Shown here: one piece after another, positions 2,448-64,000 of the stretch
Layout: each line of letters opens with the position of its first letter
Numbering within the stretch: the first letter of the stretch is position 1
Sequence record: NC_054919.1
From: Escherichia phage vB_EcoM_G4507
Reading direction: 5' to 3' (one strand)
DNA: 64,000 nt
The notes under the pieces: model-generated
Database searches by the model: none
The model's input: only the letters and a program-made list of their open reading frames with translations
What the model was told of the DNA's origin: nothing
Made by a program: the position numbers and the translations under genes

Positions 2448-4264
2448 TATTGGCTCATCCATTCTTTACGAAGGTCAGCATTATCTCCCATGAGCATTTC
2501 AAAAAGCTCTTTCCAGTTCTCAGGAAGTTTAACAACATCATATACTGGGTTTTGAATCATCTCACGATATTCAGATTTTTCCAAAGAGCCAAGTCCCTTA
2601 ATATAACGGATGCTATGTTTAGGTAGAGCATCTTTGGCACTCTCATATTCAGCGACTGTATAAAACCATTCTTGTTTTTTACCGACCTGAGCGATGATTA
2701 CAGGAGTTTTGACAAAGCGAATTCTTCCTTGTTCAAACAGTTCTGGCCAATTACTAAAAAATCCGAGCAGAGAAGGATAAATGCTTCCTAAACCATCATG
2801 GTCAGCATCGGTCATAATAGCAATATTATGATAATTCAAGTTTTCAGCTTTTTCACCAAGAACTAATCCAGTGATTGCGCAAATATCAAATAGTTCTTTG
2901 TTTTTAAGCATATCAGCATATGACATACCCCAACTGTTGAGAACTTTACCACGCAATGGATAACCACCATGAAGTTCTTTATCACGAACATCAATAAGAT
3001 ATCCGATAGCAGAATCACCCTCAGTCAAGAAAAGAGTAGTGTCAGCATCTTTACCACAAAGATTCGCTTTGATATGTTTATGAACCTTAGCTTTAGAAGC
3101 CTTTTTAGCTGCTTTAGTTTCTGCTGCTTTTTCTGCTGCCAATTTACGTGCTAAAGCAGCTTCAATAATCGGCATTAAAATTGCTTCATTATTTAGAATA
3201 GCGCGTGAAATCTTTTTAGCATCAAGTTGAATATGACTACGAATTTCACCAAAAGGAGAAGTAAGTCGTTCTTTAGTTTGAGAATCAAATCGCATGTTTT
3301 TCATATCACGGACAAACATAACGATAGTCAAACATTCTTTGACACGCGCTTTAGTTACATCAATTTTGAACTTACGTTTGATTTGTGGAATAAGGTCTTC
3401 ACAAATATCATCCATAACACAGTCAATGTGATGGCCACCATTCTTAGTGTGAATGTTATTCACATAAGTTAATTGACGAAAACCATCCGGTGAACGACCA
3501 ACCGCAATAGAACAATTTTCTTGTTCTTGAACAATAGCATGTTCATCATACTGTCGTGCATATTTCTTAAAATTGCCCTGAACCTTTTTACCATTAAAGG
3601 TAAATTGAATATCAGGATAAACAACAGCAAGTGTCTGGAGACGATCTAGTGTAATGTCAAGATAAACTTGAGACAGCTCATTAGTTTCAAATGACATAAA
3701 ATCTGGAATGAAAGTAACACGAGTTCCTTTCCATTTTCCAGGAATAGTTTCCCATGATTTATTTTCCATGCCATTTGAACAACGAACTACAATATTATTT
3801 TGACCATCGCCAGTTTCACCGACAAACATCACAGAAAAAATGTTAGTTAAACTAGAACCAACACCATTCATACCACCGGTGACACGTTCTTTATCATCAC
3901 CAAAGTTACCACCTGCTTTTGGAATAGTCCATGCAGCAACAGGACCAGGAATTTCTTCACCGGTAGGTGTTTTAACCATCGCCTGCGGAATACCACGACC
4001 GTTATCTTCAACTGTTACTTGATTGTTTTTAATAGTAACATTAATTTTATTTGCGAATTTAAACTTAGTACGAATACCTTCATCTACTGAGTTATCGATA
4101 ATTTCATCAATAAGCTTAACAAGACCAGGTACATACTGAACACTTTCCCATTTACCAAACAGAAAGCGCTCATGCATTTCATTAGCAGAAGAGCCAATGT
4201 ACATGCCACTACGCTTTTTGATATGTTCAATATCGCTCAGAATTTTAATTTCATTCTTAATCAT
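2447..4264 (-). CDS. 39: DNA topoisomerase II large subunit (GyrB-like ATPase plus C-terminal part that is separate gene 60 in T4)
   Basis: 605 aa from ATG (track ORF begins one codon earlier at GTG); TOPRIM-type motifs EGDSA and IMTDADHDG; GAGGA RBS. Confidence 0.93.
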   Translation of the reverse strand: MIKNEIKILSDIEHIKKRSGMYIGSSANEMHERFLFGKWESVQYVPGLVKLIDEIIDNSVDEGIRTKFKFANKINVTIKNNQVTVEDNGRGIPQAMVKTPTGEEIPGPVAAWTIPKAGGNFGDDKERVTGGMNGVGSSLTNIFSVMFVGETGDGQNNIVVRCSNGMENKSWETIPGKWKGTRVTFIPDFMSFETNELSQVYLDITLDRLQTLAVVYPDIQFTFNGKKVQGNFKKYARQYDEHAIVQEQENCSIAVGRSPDGFRQLTYVNNIHTKNGGHHIDCVMDDICEDLIPQIKRKFKIDVTKARVKECLTIVMFVRDMKNMRFDSQTKERLTSPFGEIRSHIQLDAKKISRAILNNEAILMPIIEAALARKLAAEKAAETKAAKKASKAKVHKHIKANLCGKDADTTLFLTEGDSAIGYLIDVRDKELHGGYPLRGKVLNSWGMSYADMLKNKELFDICAITGLVLGEKAENLNYHNIAIMTDADHDGLGSIYPSLLGFFSNWPELFEQGRIRFVKTPVIIAQVGKKQEWFYTVAEYESAKDALPKHSIRYIKGLGSLEKSEYREMIQNPVYDVVKLPENWKELFEMLMGDNADLRKEWMSQ

Positions 4265-57327: not shown

Positions 57328-57909
57328 CTAACCGAGCTTTTTAGTTAATTCGTTCCAGTGTTTTCTACACAAAGAAACATAAATTTCATCACCAATACAG
57401 ATTTGATTACCTTCTTTAACTGGTGTTCCATCTTCCATTAATCGAGCTGTCATAATCGCTTTTTTGCCGCAATGACAAACTGCCTTTAGTTCAATAAGTT
57501 TATCTGCAATCGCTAAAAGTTCTTTAGAACCTTCAAACAATTTTCCAGCGAAATCAGTCCTTAACCCATAAGCCATAACAGGAACATTATATGTATCAAC
57601 AATTCGACTCAATTGATGCACTTGTTCAGTTTTTAAAAACTGGGCTTCATCTACAAATACGCAATGAATATCTTTTTGTGCTTCAGCCCATTTATAGAAC
57701 TCGAAAATATCCATATCATCTGTAATAATATTCGCTTCCTGTTTAATTCCAATGCGAGAAACAACTTCACAGACAGAATCACGAGTATCAATAGCAGGCT
57801 TAAGAACTAATACACTCATTCCACGTTCTTTATAATTATGTGCAGCAGTCAAAAGAGAAGCAGATTTTCCAGCATTCATTGCTGCATAAGTAAAAATTAA
57901 ACTCGCCAT
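57328..57909 (-). CDS. tk: thymidine kinase
   Basis: 193 aa; P-loop AAMNAGKS; zinc ribbon CHCGKK...CRKH. Confidence 0.93.
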   Translation of the reverse strand: MASLIFTYAAMNAGKSASLLTAAHNYKERGMSVLVLKPAIDTRDSVCEVVSRIGIKQEANIITDDMDIFEFYKWAEAQKDIHCVFVDEAQFLKTEQVHQLSRIVDTYNVPVMAYGLRTDFAGKLFEGSKELLAIADKLIELKAVCHCGKKAIMTARLMEDGTPVKEGNQICIGDEIYVSLCRKHWNELTKKLG

Positions 57910-57910
57910 C

Positions 57911-58099
57911 TTAGTCCTTAGTTAAATTTTCTAAATATGTTTCTAAATCATTTTCAGCTTTATCGATAGATTTTACTAATTCGTAATATGTTTCGGCATC
58001 TCCATATTCAGAAGATATTTCAAAAGACAAATCCTTTTCTAAACTAATAATTTCACCAACTAAAAATAATATTTCGTTCTTTTGTTCGCGAGTAATCAT
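57911..58099 (-). CDS. hypothetical protein
   Basis: 62-aa ORF. Confidence 0.5.
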   Translation of the reverse strand: MITREQKNEILFLVGEIISLEKDLSFEISSEYGDAETYYELVKSIDKAENDLETYLENLTKD

Positions 58100-58281
58100 A
58101 AGGAATTTATATAATCAATGAGTTCTTGTTCTTTATTATCAAATTCTTTGGAAAGTTCTTCATATTCATTTGCGCTAAAAGGACCGCATTCATTACAAAC
58201 TTTTTCCAATTCACTATTTTTATCCATAATTTCGTGGATAAGAGAAAAGAGTTTGTCTTTTTGTTCTTTGCTTAGGCTCAT
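58096..58281 (-). CDS. hypothetical protein
   Basis: 61-aa ORF. Confidence 0.5.
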   Translation of the reverse strand: MSLSKEQKDKLFSLIHEIMDKNSELEKVCNECGPFSANEYEELSKEFDNKEQELIDYINSL

Positions 58282-58447
58282 ATATTAATTTCCAGAAGTT
58301 TTAAAATAATTCGCTTTTGCTTAAATATTTCCACAGTTAAATGATCAGTATCTTTTTGACCAATTCCAATGGCAAAACCTTTATTAACAGCGAGTTCAAT
58401 TAAATTATCAAGTTCACGTAACACTTCATATTGTAACTCAGAACTAT

Positions 58448-58675
58448 TCATTTCGGTTTACCTTCTTTAACGAAATCTGGATAAGGATAAAATCCCGAAT
58501 AAAATCCTTCACCTTTATGATTGATGCATCCTTTATTAGAACAATAGCACCAATAATCGAAATCACAAGCCATTTCATCGTTACATAAAGCAAAAACAAC
58601 CGGCCACTTACACTTTTCACAGTGGGCATTTTTAAGAATACTAGTTTGGCTCATAACCATGTAACCTTTAAGCAA
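58448..58675 (-). CDS. cysteine-rich small protein
   Basis: 75 aa, 8 Cys; overlapping 58444..58629 in other frame rejected. Confidence 0.5.
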   Translation of the reverse strand: MLKGYMVMSQTSILKNAHCEKCKWPVVFALCNDEMACDFDYWCYCSNKGCINHKGEGFYSGFYPYPDFVKEGKPK

Positions 58676-58863
58676 TATTCTTCTACATGTTGTTTACGAC
58701 CTTTCTTATCAATAAAGGTATATTCAACGAATGTTCCAATGTAGTCTTTATCTACATCATGTGGACTATTAATTGGGCATTTAGTACGGCAAATGCGTTC
58801 CCATTGACGAATAATTACTGCTTTGTTTTTAGGATCAAACGGATGTGGGTAATGTACTTTCAT
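58651..58863 (-). CDS. hypothetical protein
   Basis: 70-aa ORF. Confidence 0.5.
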   Translation of the reverse strand: MKVHYPHPFDPKNKAVIIRQWERICRTKCPINSPHDVDKDYIGTFVEYTFIDKKGRKQHVEEYCLKVTWL

Positions 58864-59314
58864 AATCCACCACTATTAAATCAATATCAGGAGTAAACAT
58901 GTCGATTAATTTAGAAACCTTATCCCAATCGCCGCCAGCAATACCACAACCTATACGTGGAATGTAAATTACTGGTTTAAACAAAAGGGTTTCTGCCTGT
59001 AGATTTAATTCTATCATGCAGTTTACTAAAGCACCATAATCAAGATTAGGACCTGGTTCGTATTGCGTATACAAGTTATAACATATGCCAAACCCATTAG
59101 GTTTATGTTTAAAAACAATAGACATATCGCCTAATTTATCACGAGAACCGTACTCAGTAGTGGTTTTATCTATTTCTAAAATTTTGGGATAGGCTCTTGC
59201 TAATTGACCAGCTACACCACTGCCCATTGTATGAAAACAGTTACACCCGTGCGCAATAATATTACCTTCAAGAAAGAGGGCGACAATATCGCCCTTGATA
59301 TATTTTACAATCAT
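58835..59314 (-). CDS. macro-domain protein (predicted ADP-ribose binding/processing)
   Basis: 159 aa; GDI...IAHGCNCFHTMGSGVAGQ and IPRIGCGIAGGDWD resemble macro-domain motifs. Confidence 0.6.
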   Translation of the reverse strand: MIVKYIKGDIVALFLEGNIIAHGCNCFHTMGSGVAGQLARAYPKILEIDKTTTEYGSRDKLGDMSIVFKHKPNGFGICYNLYTQYEPGPNLDYGALVNCMIELNLQAETLLFKPVIYIPRIGCGIAGGDWDKVSKLIDMFTPDIDLIVVDYESTLPTSV

Positions 59315-59658
59315 CTAGTACTCAATCCTCGATTATAAGAATCTACTAAACGGTCAACCATTGAATGACAAGCGGCTTTATCTTTTTCCTCCGCAACTGA
59401 ACATTCTAGGGTATTCCACTTTTTAGCATATCGTTTTAATAATGTATCGTTTTTGTATCTGCTTGATTTATCTCTTTCTCCGTCTTTATATGCATATATT
59501 AATTTCTGCGCAAATTCAGCTTGGCATGCTTTATTTTTCCCGCAATAATCTGCCGCAGTGCGGTTCACATACTCCCTAATTTCAGTATATGATGTATCTG
59601 CTGACGCATAAGCAGAAAATGAAATTAATCCTATACATAAAACCAAAATTTTAGTCAT
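59311..59658 (-). CDS. secreted hypothetical protein
   Basis: 115 aa with signal peptide MTKILVLCIGLISFSAYASA. Confidence 0.6.
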   Translation of the reverse strand: MTKILVLCIGLISFSAYASADTSYTEIREYVNRTAADYCGKNKACQAEFAQKLIYAYKDGERDKSSRYKNDTLLKRYAKKWNTLECSVAEEKDKAACHSMVDRLVDSYNRGLSTR

Positions 59659-60196
59659 TTACTATTTCCAAAAGTTTATTATTTTTAAGGTAATTAGCCT
59701 TTTCTAGGACTTCAGAAGCATATTTAGAACCTGCTTTAACATTCCATCCCGAATTATAAGAGGATATTGCTTTTCTTATATCGCCCTTATGTATATTTAA
59801 CCAATAAGAAAGTTCAATGTACGCCCAGGAAGCTGAATTGGATCGTTTATTCAACATTCTTTTTATTTCAGCATCGGTCATATTATAACCAAGTTCCTTA
59901 ACTCTCGCTCGCATAGTAGGCAAATAATTTTGGAACATTCCGTAAGCATGATGTTTTGGTTTAGATTTTAAATTAACTCCGCCAGAGCTTTCTTGCCATA
60001 AAATAGCAGCCATTATATGACCTAATCCGCTCTTGTGGATATTTTTGTGTGTTTTATATTTTCCATCCTTAGAAAATTGTTCCCCGAATTGATACGCGTA
60101 ACGCATGTTATCGAGTTGGACATTACTGAAAGTATGCTCGGAGCTATGTGCCATCATTGAAATGGCCAATAGACCAGCGAGTAGTGCTTTTCTCAT
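59651..60196 (-). CDS. secreted lytic-transglycosylase-like protein
   Basis: 181 aa; signal peptide; SLT-like motifs LWQESSGG and YGMFQ. Confidence 0.6.
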   Translation of the reverse strand: MRKALLAGLLAISMMAHSSEHTFSNVQLDNMRYAYQFGEQFSKDGKYKTHKNIHKSGLGHIMAAILWQESSGGVNLKSKPKHHAYGMFQNYLPTMRARVKELGYNMTDAEIKRMLNKRSNSASWAYIELSYWLNIHKGDIRKAISSYNSGWNVKAGSKYASEVLEKANYLKNNKLLEIVND

Positions 60197-60203
60197 GTTT
60201 ACC

Positions 60204-60665
60204 TCATTGAGTTTTAATTACTGCTTTAGAAGCCTTTCCTGGTAAACGACGACTGTTGATAATTGCCATCCTACATTGAAGTGACGGGTCTTTGAACTTC
60301 TCATTAGGTTTACAAACTGTAAATCCAAGCCAAAGATTTCCATCTGTAATTTCTAAACGTCCAGGACGATATTCAACTCCATCAATAAAATCCTCATCAA
60401 TGTCAGGACGCGGAGGCATACTCAGGAATTCATTAACTTCTAAAACATGGTCTTTTATTTTATGGAATAATTCAAAAACATATGTCTCATCAATCTCCCG
60501 TTGAATTGCACGATCAAGAAGATGTTGAGAATATTTTAGATGAAACGATGAGACCCCTGCTGCTTTTGATGCCTCACGAATCTCATTGTTAATTTGACGA
60601 AACTCCGACTCAAAGTGACGACGAAGCTTATTTCGACGGATAAAAACTTCTGTATTGATAGTCAT
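60204..60665 (-). CDS. regB: endoribonuclease RegB
   Basis: 153 aa; size and position match T4 RegB. Confidence 0.85.
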   Translation of the reverse strand: MTINTEVFIRRNKLRRHFESEFRQINNEIREASKAAGVSSFHLKYSQHLLDRAIQREIDETYVFELFHKIKDHVLEVNEFLSMPPRPDIDEDFIDGVEYRPGRLEITDGNLWLGFTVCKPNEKFKDPSLQCRMAIINSRRLPGKASKAVIKTQ

Positions 60666-60692
60666 GTTATTCTCCTCTTAACTGATAGAAAA

Positions 60693-60722
60693 ATTATACC
60701 ACAGTCAAGAGGAAAAGTAAAC
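60693..60722 (-). promoter_or_regulatory. early-type promoter upstream of regB (GTTTAC -35, TATAAT -10)
   Basis: Minus-strand motif. Confidence 0.55.
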
Positions 60723-60796
60723 AGTTATTCTTTAAATCTAATCAATTTATTCATAGACTTTGAAACTTCTGCACGAACCTCATGTAAGTTTTTAAG

Positions 60797-61045
60797 CTAT
60801 TCAAGACGCTGCGTATAGTAAGCAATTTCATCTTCTTCGAGACAGTCCTGTGAATCTTCTTTAAGATAACGTGCATAGTCCTGAAAAGCTTTACGGACTA
60901 CTTCCTGGAAGTCATCAAGACTTTGAATTTTCTTAGGAGCGGCAGATACACGACGAGGTGCAGTATAATACTCATAACCAAACCCTGCACTTAATTGAGC
61001 CATTAGTATTTTTCCTCTGGTTGGAACACTGCACGACAAGCCCAC
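60797..61045 (-). CDS. hypothetical protein (vs.3-like)
   Basis: 82-aa ORF. Confidence 0.5.
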
Positions 61046-61305
61046 ATACTGGCTTCTTTGAGTTTCGTTTTAGCAATAGTTAACTGATCGAGGCTTTCAG
61101 CATAATTCTTCGCGAGTTCATCATCTTCACAGCTATCAAATGCTTCCCAAAATTCATCGTATAAAGCATCAAAGATAAGTCCTAAACGAACTTCAGCGTC
61201 TTTGATAGCATTCACTTTACTGATTTTCTCTTCGGTATGCGGCTTATAACCCTTAATATCTTCAATCATATTTGACTTCCTCACCAGTACATAAATCATA
61301 TTCAA
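61003..61305 (-). CDS. hypothetical helical protein (vs.4-like); start uncertain
   Basis: 100-aa track ORF overlapping upstream gene. Confidence 0.5.
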
Positions 61306-61483
61306 CTAAACGAATAGGTTCATGAATGCCATATCCCTGAACAGAAATTTCTGTCGTGGGATAAATTCCATCAATATCACCCATATTCCAGGCTTCATTA
61401 AATTGCTGTTCGCCTGAATTACTAAACCACTCGGCGAAAGCATTTAGCACATCTTCAGAACCTTCAATAATTATCTTTGCCAT
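61262..61483 (-). CDS. hypothetical protein (vs.5-like)
   Basis: 73-aa ORF. Confidence 0.5.
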   Translation of the reverse strand: MAKIIIEGSEDVLNAFAEWFSNSGEQQFNEAWNMGDIDGIYPTTEISVQGYGIHEPIRLVEYDLCTGEEVKYD

Positions 61484-61845
61484 TACAAACTCTCGGTGAA
61501 GGTACGAGCGATAACGTCGCGCTGCTGTTCCGGAGTCAGAGAGTTAAAGCGAACTGCATAACCGGATACACGGATGGTCAGCTGCGGATATTTTTCCGGA
61601 TGCTTAACTGCATCTTCCAGAGTTTCACGACGCAGAACGTTAACGTTCAGGTGTTGACCACCTTCAATTTTAACTGTAGGTTGTGTTTCAATTTCAATTT
61701 CACGGGCATGCAAACCGTAGAAAATTTCCGGGTCTACAAAAGAGTCCTCTTTAAAGGTTTTAGAGACAATAATTCGTGCTTGAATACCATCTTCAAAATA
61801 AATAGTACCTTTATGTGTGCCTTCAAGAATTTGATATGCTTTCAT
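61483..61845 (-). CDS. autonomous glycyl-radical cofactor (GrcA/YfiD-like; T4 Y06I-like)
   Basis: 120 aa; C-terminal ~60 aa including [31 protein letters not shown] match E. coli GrcA as recalled; 3' half markedly GC-richer than flanks. Confidence 0.8.
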
Positions 61846-61852
61846 ATAAACC

Positions 61853-62182
61853 TCAATTAGAAAATAAATTTATCCAAGATTGTTCTTTAATTAAAAACGG
61901 CTCAGAATCATATGCCATTAAACTTTGCGTAATTAATCCTTTAAAAGGTCCATCAATAAATTCCATGGTAAAATATGGAATTTTATTCATTAGCCGTGCA
62001 TTAGGAGCAGTACATAAAACTCTGCATCCTTTGAATACACCTTTTTGTAATTTGTATTGCTTGGGATAAAATTCGCTCAAAATGTTATTATTTGCTAAAA
62101 TTTCAAAATGATTCACCAATTTATTTTTAATAGTTTTTGGCGAAAAATAAAGATATTCGAAAAGTTGCGTATCTGTCATCAT
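61853..62182 (-). CDS. hypothetical protein
   Basis: Start at MMTDTQ giving ATGA overlap with upstream gene. Confidence 0.5.
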
Positions 62183-62721
62183 TGCATTCCAATTACGAAA
62201 AACTGCGGACGAGTAATACCACCAATACAGCATTTACTATTGCAGCAATATTGCACAGTTTCAATATGAATATCGTAAATTTTATCCATATCAGGAGATT
62301 TAACAGGCTCATCGATTATATACAAAATTCGAGAAAGCGATAAACCTCTGAACTTGCTACCTCTATTACCAACAAAACTACGGACAGAATCAGTAAATAA
62401 ACGGAATCGAATATCATCGCTAGAATAACGAGAAAATTCTTTTTTAATGCGGCCCACAGAAATTTTAGCGTAAGCTGAAGTATTAGAAAGAACAATAACT
62501 GTTCCACCATCATACAACCAATTAGCGGCAAAATTAGTTGCTGCAGTTGATTTACCGGATTGTCTGCCACCATCTAAACGAAGTGTACAATATTCTTTAA
62601 ATAAATACGACGAATCAGGTACATAAAATCCACTATTACAAATTTCTTCTACTCTAGCGTCAGAATGGTGTGTAAAAGCATTCATCAGGGATAGATAAGG
62701 ACCAGTTAAAAATGTTCTCAT
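62179..62721 (-). CDS. small P-loop NTPase
   Basis: ~180 aa from MRTFLTGPY; Walker A GGRQSGKST, Walker B ILYIIDEP; Cys-rich C-terminus. Confidence 0.55.
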   Translation of the reverse strand: MRTFLTGPYLSLMNAFTHHSDARVEEICNSGFYVPDSSYLFKEYCTLRLDGGRQSGKSTAATNFAANWLYDGGTVIVLSNTSAYAKISVGRIKKEFSRYSSDDIRFRLFTDSVRSFVGNRGSKFRGLSLSRILYIIDEPVKSPDMDKIYDIHIETVQYCCNSKCCIGGITRPQFFVIGMQ

Positions 62722-62865
62722 GTTATTTCTCTTAAGGTTTTTGGGCCATTCCGTGGCGCATGAATTGTCCATTTCTGTATTTACCCATTACCGCACTTGG
62801 GCTCGACCTTATTACAGGTTGGCGGGAATCCCTCATAGAATCATGAGGTCCAGGTTGTTCCCATA

Positions 62866-63340
62866 TTATTTGAACGATTTAACGTACTGAATAGAACCTT
62901 TACTATTTACAAAGGCAATTTTACCATTTTTATTATACATGGTAGCAGTACGCTGATAGCCATAAGTTTGCTTACCAGATTGATAACCAACTAATGCAAA
63001 ATTATCTTCACCCATTTTATTCTGTTTAGCGCGAATGCGTTCATGACCATGTGCCATAAGAACCTTAGCATCACCAGTTACAATGGATCGACGAGTTTTT
63101 TCATCTTCAACTGTATTAACAAAGTCGTCAAATGAATCAAATTTAGCATGAGATTTATTATACAGTTTTCCATCTACTGCATAATTATATCCCTGTACAT
63201 CCATCTCAACTTCTGTACCATCATCCAATACAGCAGTAATTTTCTGTCCTTTTTTTAAATTTCAAAAGATCAGTAAAAGATTCAGCAATAATTTGAGAAT
63301 TAATAGCTGCTTCAGTGATAAATTCTTGATATGTTTTCAT
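62866..63340 (-). pseudogene. internal-protein (ip)-like gene interrupted by +1 frameshift at an A7 tract
   Basis: ATG at 63340 encodes MKTYQEFITEAAINSQIIAESFTDLLKFKK then hits a stop after the A7 run (63250..63256); remaining 120 codons continue in +1 frame; A6 would give one ~158-aa ORF. Confidence 0.55.
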
Positions 63341-63394
63341 GTGTTTCCTTTAAATATTTTAATTAGTAATTTGTCTCTTCAAGCAACTGTGAAT

Positions 63395-63424
63395 ATACTA
63401 TCACAATTCTAGGAGAAAGTAAAC
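63395..63424 (-). promoter_or_regulatory. early-type promoter upstream of ip-like gene (GTTTAC -35, TAGTAT -10)
   Basis: Minus-strand motif. Confidence 0.5.
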
Positions 63425-63428
63425 AACT

Positions 63429-63959
<531 letters not shown>

Positions 63960-64000
63960 TTAAAAGAGGCTGTTCATTATTCGGTAAAGTGAAGGACCCA

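Follow-up and report, generated by a model that had tools for sequence, protein, structure and literature searches.

Three small open reading frames (ORFs) lie beside regB in the DNA of Escherichia phage vB_EcoM_G4507 that was analysed here, a stretch of 64,000 nucleotides from sequence record NC_054919.1 (referred to below as the window). The initial annotation of this region placed them in the slot where T4 carries a protein that binds the cyclic oligonucleotides of CBASS, and it did not decide which of the three, if any, is the counterpart of that protein. The locus thus raises the question of which ORF encodes the sponge, and what the other two encode. We consider it very probable that the answer, taken as a whole, is the following: the three ORFs are orthologues of T4 vs.5, vs.4 and vs.3; Vs.4 is the sponge Acb2; Vs.3 is the Thoeris inhibitor TadIV-1, predicted to be inactivated by an amber codon; and the role of Vs.5 is obscure.

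Identity of the three ORFs beside regB

The program-made list of ORFs contains three entries in this region, all on the minus strand, at positions 60797-61045 (82 aa, GTG start), 61003-61305 (100 aa, TTG start) and 61262-61483 (73 aa, ATG start), in agreement with the three small ORFs that had been noted next to regB. The sizes originally given for them, 82, about 90-100 and 73 aa, are those of the listed ORFs, and the last of these is also the size of the protein. For the other two, homology and the annotation of Escherichia phage ECP52 place the true start of vs.3 (68 aa in this phage) at ATG 61003 and that of vs.4 (88 aa) at ATG 61269; the lengths of 82 and 100 aa stem from upstream GTG and TTG codons located within the preceding genes. 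The description of the trio as lying after regB was correct in plus-strand coordinates only. These genes are all encoded by the minus strand and are transcribed in the order vs.8>vs.7>vs.6>vs.5>vs.4>vs.3>regB, which places the trio upstream of regB.

A megablast search with region 60100-62300 matched 810 phage records. The best match was ECP52, which differs from the window at a single position in 2201 bases; over the whole 64 kb the identity to this phage is only 95-98.7%. Genes vs.5, vs.4 and vs.3 are present in identical order in hundreds of Tequatrovirus records. In addition, a search of IMG/VR with a Vs.5 profile revealed 14 loci with the order vs.8-vs.7-(vs.6)-vs.5-vs.4-vs.3-regB-vs.1, down to an identity of about 50% for Vs.5. 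The conserved order of the trio in these hundreds of records and 14 loci shows that the three ORFs are genuine genes and not the result of chance. Gene losses were also seen among the IMG/VR loci: one of them lacks both vs.3 and vs.4 (L015) and two others lack vs.3 (L014 and L021). Judged by their sequences, the three ORFs are orthologues of the T4 early genes vs.5, vs.4 and vs.3, located in the Tequatrovirus gene string that runs from vs.8 to regB.

The genes are tightly packed (Table 1). The stop codon of vs.6 and the start codon of vs.5 share the sequence TAATG, as do the stop codon of vs.4 and the start codon of vs.3, and the 3' end of vs.5 overlaps the start of vs.4 by 8 nt. The genes have GAGG ribosome-binding sites of their own: the sequence GAGGA is present about 9 nt upstream of the vs.4 start, and the vs.3 start is also preceded by GAGGA. 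The putative promoter listed in Table 1 is only a pattern match, in a region that, taken overall, is not enriched in promoter-like sites.

Table 1. Positions of the trio, its neighbours and associated features in the window.
Feature	Coordinates	Strand	Description
vs.6	61483..61845	minus	GrcA-like glycyl-radical protein; Pfam Gly_radical E=2e-18; 118/120 identical to T4 Vs.6; upstream boundary of the trio
vs.5 / vs.4 / vs.3 trio		minus	flanked by vs.6 (grcA-like) and regB; genes overlap
vs.5	61262..61483	minus	73 aa, acidic, pI 4.05; ATG overlaps vs.6 stop (TAATG)
vs.4 = acb2	61003..61269	minus	88 aa; ATG 61269, TAA 61003-61005; GAGGA Shine-Dalgarno ~9 nt upstream
vs.3 = tadIV-1, truncated	60797..61003	minus	68 aa; ATG 61003; amber TAG 60797-60799 = codon 69
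vs.3 untranslated remnant	60725..60796	minus	codons 70-92 and original TAA, still in frame: LKNLHEVRAEVSKSMNKLIRFKE
Putative sigma-70-like promoter	60693..60721	minus	TTTACT-17-TATAAT with TG, 10/12 consensus; between original vs.3 end and regB
regB	60204..60665	minus	site-specific endoribonuclease, landmark gene; Pfam REGB_T4 E=8e-69; 153/153 identical to T4 RegB

The genes of the trio appear in public records as "hypothetical" or under the erroneous names "endoribonuclease" and "pyrimidine dimer glycosylase". When the region was compared with Pfam family REGB_T4 (PF10715), only the true regB gene (60204-60665) matched, and Vs.3, Vs.4 and Vs.5 did not. As judged by these profile comparisons, the labels "endoribonuclease" and "RegB domain" that are attached to vs.3, vs.4 and vs.1 in GenBank, and to PDB entry 9WIW, are a propagated misannotation.

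Vs.4 is the anti-CBASS sponge Acb2

Comparison of Vs.4 with all sequences in the PDB produced a match over its full length (residues 1-88) to entry 7UQ2, the crystallised T4 protein named "Vs.4" (E=1.3e-52). Vs.4 also matched Pfam family PF24729 (Acb2_Tad1_hairpin) at profile positions 1-58 of 58, with 70.8 bits against a gathering cut-off of 27 bits, as well as PHROG 717 (E=1e-31), which is the family used by Jenson et al. 2023 (PMC10097602). These matches, together with the conserved residues described below, bear out the expectation that one of the small vs genes in this slot encodes an anti-CBASS sponge, and they assign this function to the middle ORF. The possibility that the Acb2 orthologue is instead one of the outer ORFs is extremely remote, as neither Vs.3 nor Vs.5 matches PF24729 or 7UQ2 and the middle ORF matches both. 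The alignment to Vs.4/Acb2 and its relatives that had been proposed beforehand as a check shows that two of the three ORFs, Vs.4 and Vs.3, match known sponge families. The exact Vs.4 sequence is present in the databases as QBO66087.1 (G4507) and UTQ80498.1 (ECP52).

T4 Vs.4 is a hexamer that binds three molecules of cGAMP with a Kd of ~30 nM (PMC10097602). Stacking interactions with the bases involve Y8 and F82; Y8, H11, K23 and R79 contribute hydrogen bonds and salt bridges, and L29, A66, A73 and A77 (and F33) make up the hexamer interface; each of the mutations T12I, S74N and A77I destroys its function (PMC10097602). The window protein is identical to T4 Vs.4 at 83 of 88 positions (94%). It has the same length, is encoded in the same slot between vs.5 and vs.3, and shares the contact and interface residues as well as D61 and T68. 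Five substitutions (G17S, L44F, N46S, C50D and F52L) constitute the only difference between the two proteins, and all five are located away from residues with a published function. The cyclic-dinucleotide pocket residues Y8, H11, K23, S74, R79 and F82 (T4 numbering) and the hexamer-interface residues L29, F33, A66, A73 and A77 are all identical in Vs.4, and T12 and L60 are kept too.

The Acb2 protein of PaMx33 (8H2J/8IXZ) was matched with E=0.04. It is a distant homologue (PMC10312549) that aligns over the full length, its cyclic-dinucleotide residues Y11 and K26 corresponding to Y8 and K23 of Vs.4. The cyclic-trinucleotide pocket, an optional feature of the family, is not found in Vs.4, which contains D61 at the position of PaMx33 R67; T68 is the equivalent of T74. 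T4 Acb2, in which D61 likewise replaces R67, binds cyclic dinucleotides and not cA3 or cAAG (PMC10312549). Because D61 is present as in T4 Acb2, Vs.4 is predicted not to bind cyclic trinucleotides.

We conclude with high confidence that Vs.4 is Acb2, and that the ability to sequester CBASS cyclic dinucleotides would carry over by homology. By analogy with the T4 protein, from which its oligomeric state and ligand binding are deduced, Vs.4 would form a hexamer with three pockets at the dimer interfaces. Within each pocket, Y8 and F82 would clamp one molecule of 3',3'-cGAMP or of another cyclic dinucleotide, which H11, K23 and R79 would contact, and in this way the CBASS second messenger would be kept away from its effector.

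Vs.3 is TadIV-1 truncated by an amber codon

In the window, the vs.3 frame reads MAQLSAGF...YYTQRLE, followed by TAG, by LKNLHEVRAEVSKSMNKLIRFKE and finally by TAA. The ancestral frame comprises 92 aa and runs to position 60725, and the internal stop shortens its product to 68 aa. All aligned full-length homologues, like T4 and ECP52, have CAG (Gln) as codon 69. Compared with T4 Vs.3, 89 of the 92 codons match, the differences being TAG at codon 69, A21V and K38N, and the remnant downstream of the stop is identical at the protein level to residues 70-92 of T4 Vs.3.

The 68-aa product matched PDB entry 9WIW, the TadIV-1 protein of phage UPEC07, with E=1e-25. T4 vs.3 encodes TadIV-1, an inhibitor of type IV Thoeris that sequesters the signal N7-cADPR, and deletion of vs.3 makes T4 sensitive to this defence system (Chen et al. 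2026, PMC13243611). The likeness to T4 Vs.3 and UPEC07 TadIV-1 consists of a long-form N-terminus, an intact helix 1 and a slot directly upstream of regB. Based on these alignments, vs.3 is a TadIV-1 orthologue by descent, and its product is not a complete member of the family.

According to published work (PMC13243611), the two helices of TadIV-1 form a hairpin, its N-terminal loop is flexible, and two such protomers make up a homodimer, 9WIW being the apo structure. Each pocket in the published model combines the loop from one protomer with helix 1 from its partner, and the protomers contact each other via the terminal regions of the hairpin. R17, R18 and K24 are important for the activity of T4 TadIV-1, homologues with a short N-terminus are inactive, and the triple mutant K57/K60/H83A of U07 TadIV-1 is impaired in activity; the published truncations are all N-terminal (PMC13243611). 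Since the pocket spans the loop and helix 1 of different protomers, binding of N7-cADPR requires the dimer.

An AF2 model of full-length Vs.3 agrees with the published description of the crystal structure: residues 1-28 are disordered, and residues 29-51 and 57-91 form helices. The mean pLDDT of this model is only 65, with values of about 70-80 across most of both helices. With helix 2 modelled as residues 57-91, the amber codon removes 23 of its 35 residues, and the product therefore lacks the complete two-helix hairpin of TadIV-1. The residues R17, R18 and K24 of the long-form N-terminal loop are kept, but H74 and R77 are lost, and the positions corresponding to U07 H83 and R86 fall within the missing part. 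The segment removed from Vs.3 (residues 69-92, 24 residues) is among the best conserved when 25 homologues, with identities as low as 52%, are aligned. Vs.3 of the window thus differs from the "short group" of TadIV-1 proteins described in PMC13243611: those lack the N-terminal loop, whereas Vs.3 lacks the C-terminus. A Foldseek search with the Vs.3 model gave no match in a PDB library that runs to 2026-04-08 and from which 9WIW, whose paper dates from 2026-04-13, is possibly absent.

Origin of the amber codon

Between 60100 and 62300 (2.2 kb), the window departs from ECP52 only at the amber codon (base 60799). This codon is absent from 498 related phage records, none of which is identical to the window across 60690-61010. 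The exact 32-mer containing the vs.3 TAG is also absent from IMG/VR, in which the control version with CAG had one match. The 68-aa product, QBO66086.1, is known from vB_EcoM_G4507 only. A second private disruption is located 2.4 kb from the amber codon. An additional T in a run of T residues near position 63250 (T7 for T6) splits IpIV into fragments of 39 and 120 aa (QBO66094.1 and QBO66093.1), which are also known from vB_EcoM_G4507 only, and this extra T is absent from 328 records. In 6.4 kb that are otherwise nearly identical to ECP52 there are three differences, two of which are disruptive.

The private nature of the amber codon, among 498 records and in IMG/VR, is what would be expected if it were an error of sequencing or assembly in the deposit, or a mutation of the sequenced stock, the natural phage having an intact and functional TadIV-1 of 92 aa. 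The private T7 that splits IpIV lies close by, and with it two disruptive changes fall among only three differences in 6.4 kb, which points in the same direction. So does the conservation of the 23 codons past the stop, which are still identical to T4 at the protein level: because these codons have not decayed, any inactivation of vs.3 would be very recent. On the other hand, the amber codon results from a base substitution and not from an error in homopolymer length, and the 68-aa product is annotated as such both in the original deposit and in RefSeq. Moreover, disrupted alleles are present in other assemblies, namely frameshifted Vs.3 variants (P0093 and P0098) and a frameshifted vs.4 (L014), and the losses of vs.3, or of vs.3 and vs.4, at L014, L021 and L015 are further cases. 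We regard an error or a stock mutation as a serious possibility, if not the one we favour. Our preferred reading is that TadIV-1 of vB_EcoM_G4507 is probably inactivated by the amber codon.

Predicted consequences of the truncation

An intact Vs.3 would be a homodimer in which the loop with R17, R18 and K24 would sequester N7-cADPR. The C>T change at codon 69 would lead to a product that retains this loop and helix 1, and that loses most of helix 2. As the pocket and the dimer contacts need the hairpins of both protomers and helix 2 is mostly gone, the truncated protein is probably non-functional; most likely, judging from the model, it is unable to fold or to dimerise. The phage is predicted from these sequences to lack activity against type IV Thoeris and to keep activity against CBASS.

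We also considered whether the 68-aa protein might still be an active N7-cADPR sponge, or whether read-through or suppression might be frequent enough to matter. The residues found to be important in T4 TadIV-1 (R17, R18 and K24) are indeed all encoded upstream of the stop, but binding requires the dimer according to the published pocket model, with contacts that run through the hairpin ends, and two thirds of helix 2 are gone, including the equivalent of H83. The high conservation of the lost segment within the family argues in the same sense. As to suppression, a supE-type suppressor would turn the CAG>TAG codon back into Gln, and a host carrying such a Gln-inserting amber suppressor (supE/glnV44) would restore the exact wild-type Vs.3. 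A search for tRNA genes found none, and hence no suppressor, within the 64-kb window; a tRNA cluster of the T4 type is presumably located past the end of the window. Residual activity of Vs.3, by either route, seems improbable to us, and we hold to the reading in which the truncated protein is inactive.

Vs.5 belongs to a small family restricted to T-even-like phages

Vs.5 is identical to the 73-aa T4 entry D9IEF0_BPT4. The T4 reference genome (NC_000866) contains instead a frameshifted form of 58 aa, which indicates that Vs.5 is dispensable in the laboratory. The protein matched over residues 1-73 to PHROG 1986 (E=1e-43), a family to which no function has been assigned. This family is small: its members among 5.8 billion proteins fall into 11 clusters at 90% identity, and a search with its profile against 1.84 billion representatives gave 16 matches, of which the credible ones are a few phage-like proteins of 62-118 aa. 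The long proteins matched by the profile contain FG-GAP repeats and have only a WFxNxGxQxF motif in common with it; we attribute these matches to chance. The position of the gene, between vs.6 or vs.7 and vs.4, is kept in the 14 IMG/VR loci, and at the locus without vs.3 and vs.4 (L015) it adjoins regB.

Similarity searches gave few other leads. Among Pfam families only UvsW_N appeared, far below its cut-off, and the search of NCBIfam gave nothing. The sequence match of Vs.5 to SurE in the PDB (E=0.009 over 38 residues), and the best match of the family profile to the PDB (E=1.2), are both regarded as chance. The AF2 model of Vs.5 has a strand-helix-strand-strand topology with low confidence (pLDDT 60). 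Stalk subunits of V-ATPases were the PDB structures retrieved with this model by Foldseek (best E 0.2), which is meaningless for a model so weak.

Our best guess is that Vs.5 is an accessory early protein, possibly involved in anti-defence by association. A more specific proposal is that this gene group encodes, in Vs.5, a third and as yet undescribed anti-defence protein, acting as a sponge or as an inhibitor of another immune pathway. Several properties are consistent with this: the gene is translationally coupled to those of two proven sponges, the protein is small, acidic and restricted to phages, it can be dispensed with in the laboratory, and the gene stays next to regB in L015 despite the loss of vs.3 and vs.4. 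Neighbourhood constitutes weak evidence, however, as the early region of T4 is full of unrelated small genes. The searches of PDB, Pfam, PHROG and NCBIfam revealed no similarity to sponge or anti-defence families, and the low-confidence beta-alpha-beta-beta model is unlike the helical sponges. In addition, when Vs.3 to Vs.8 were tested singly, type IV Thoeris was impaired by vs.3 only (PMC13243611). We consider the specific proposal rather doubtful, and regard Vs.5 tentatively as an accessory early protein.

Discussion

The results presented here show that the trio represents already-known biology, in which Acb2 had been guessed correctly as Vs.4, and they leave current understanding unchanged. 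Only two points are new, namely the truncated and probably inactivated TadIV-1 of G4507, and the unexplained Vs.5.

A broader interpretation would join all three genes: vs.3, vs.4 and vs.5 would form a variable anti-signalling cassette that is repeatedly inactivated in nature since sponges can be sensed, the amber codon would reflect a genuine, selected loss of TadIV-1, and Vs.5, which is always retained, would be a third and structurally new inhibitor, directed at another immune pathway. There is a precedent for sensing, as T4 Acb2 is sensed by, and triggers, the Panoptes defence system (PMC12657218), and the authors who described TadIV-1 have speculated about sensing of that protein as well (PMC13243611). 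We find this interpretation unlikely as a whole, and keep to the explanation given at the outset, that of three T4 orthologues with Vs.4 acting as Acb2 and Vs.3 being a probably inactivated TadIV-1.

On this basis, the names acb2 and tadIV-1 can be given to vs.4 and vs.3. The results also draw attention to Vs.5, which shares the cassette with two proven immune-signal sponges and is its only uncharacterised product. The assignments further allow host range to be forecast. By homology, vB_EcoM_G4507 should resist CBASS systems of the cGAMP type as T4 does, and it should be vulnerable to Panoptes systems that sense Acb2. If the amber codon is real, the phage should, unlike T4, be sensitive to type IV Thoeris. 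Such forecasts would serve both phage biology and the prediction of host range in phage therapy.

Gene content of the vs.8-to-e interval

In T4, denV, ipII and ipIII lie between vs.8 and gene e, which encodes lysozyme, whereas the corresponding interval of vB_EcoM_G4507 contains only a single, frameshifted gene of the IpIV type. Searches with tblastn across the whole 64-kb window gave no match to denV, ipII or ipIII. The IpIV-type gene, which encodes an internal virion protein, is split into two ORFs by one extra T, giving T7 instead of T6 in a T-run; in the relatives listed the protein is 157 aa long. None of the 328 records compared has the extra T, and five records differ from the window by this base alone. 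The two fragments are both annotated in vB_EcoM_G4507 only. Further 39-aa fragments are present in Logan/ENA assemblies, and slippage at this T-run may therefore be recurrent.

Within 57600-64000, the third and last difference from Escherichia phage ECP52, the nearest record over 60100-62300, lies in codon 123 of gene e. This residue of the lysozyme is Gln in the window and in T4; the ECP52 base would give Arg.

Features of the window and of the comparison loci
Feature	Source	Position	Strand	ORF length
vs.8-to-e interval	window	62179-63429		
vs.8-to-e interval	T4, NC_000866 (locus L007)	64253-66503		
IpIV-type gene	window	62866-63340	minus	39 aa + 120 aa
T-run of IpIV-type gene	window	near 63244-63250		
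Gene e, codon 123	window	63556		
ORF at tk.4 position	window	58835-59314	minus	159 aa
vs.3, vs.1 (RegB-type labels)	window	60725-61003, 59651-60196		
vs.5, T4 reference	L007	3882-4058		58 aa
Broken vs.4/acb2	L014 (IMG/VR contig)	3224-3504		26 aa (N-terminal ORF)

Annotation of the vs genes and the tk.4 position

The labels 'endoribonuclease' and 'RegB domain-containing' are widespread on vs.3, vs.4 and vs.1, and PDB 9WIW, TadIV-1 of phage UPEC07, likewise carries the name 'Endoribonuclease'; at times vs.3 also goes by 'pyrimidine dimer DNA glycosylase'. Scans with the RegB Pfam model covered Vs.3, Vs.4 and Vs.5 and matched none of them. The N-terminus of Vs.1 is a signal-peptide-like sequence.

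About 1.5 kb from the sponge genes vs.4 and vs.3, the window has an ORF where T4 has tk.4. In the T4 record, tk.4 is described as a phosphatase carrying an A1pp (macro-type) motif. The ORF of the window is a possible candidate for a further ADP-ribose-related countermeasure.

Reading frame of vs.5 in the T4 reference, and disruption or loss of vs.4 and vs.3

The vs.5 product of the T4 reference agrees with the 73-aa Vs.5 of the window and of the T4 entry D9IEF0_BPT4 over residues 1-17 only; past residue 17 the reference product is read in another frame. The vs.5 gene of NC_000866 is frameshifted, which is either real or a sequence error.

Two IMG/VR contigs of about 158-160 kb bear on the sponge genes. 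In L014, a more distant T4-like phage, vs.4/acb2 is broken: one ORF covers the N-terminus, and the C-terminal part lies out of frame. L015, a close relative of L014, is without vs.4 and vs.3, and vs.5 still adjoins regB there. Loss of the sponge genes appears to be sporadic.
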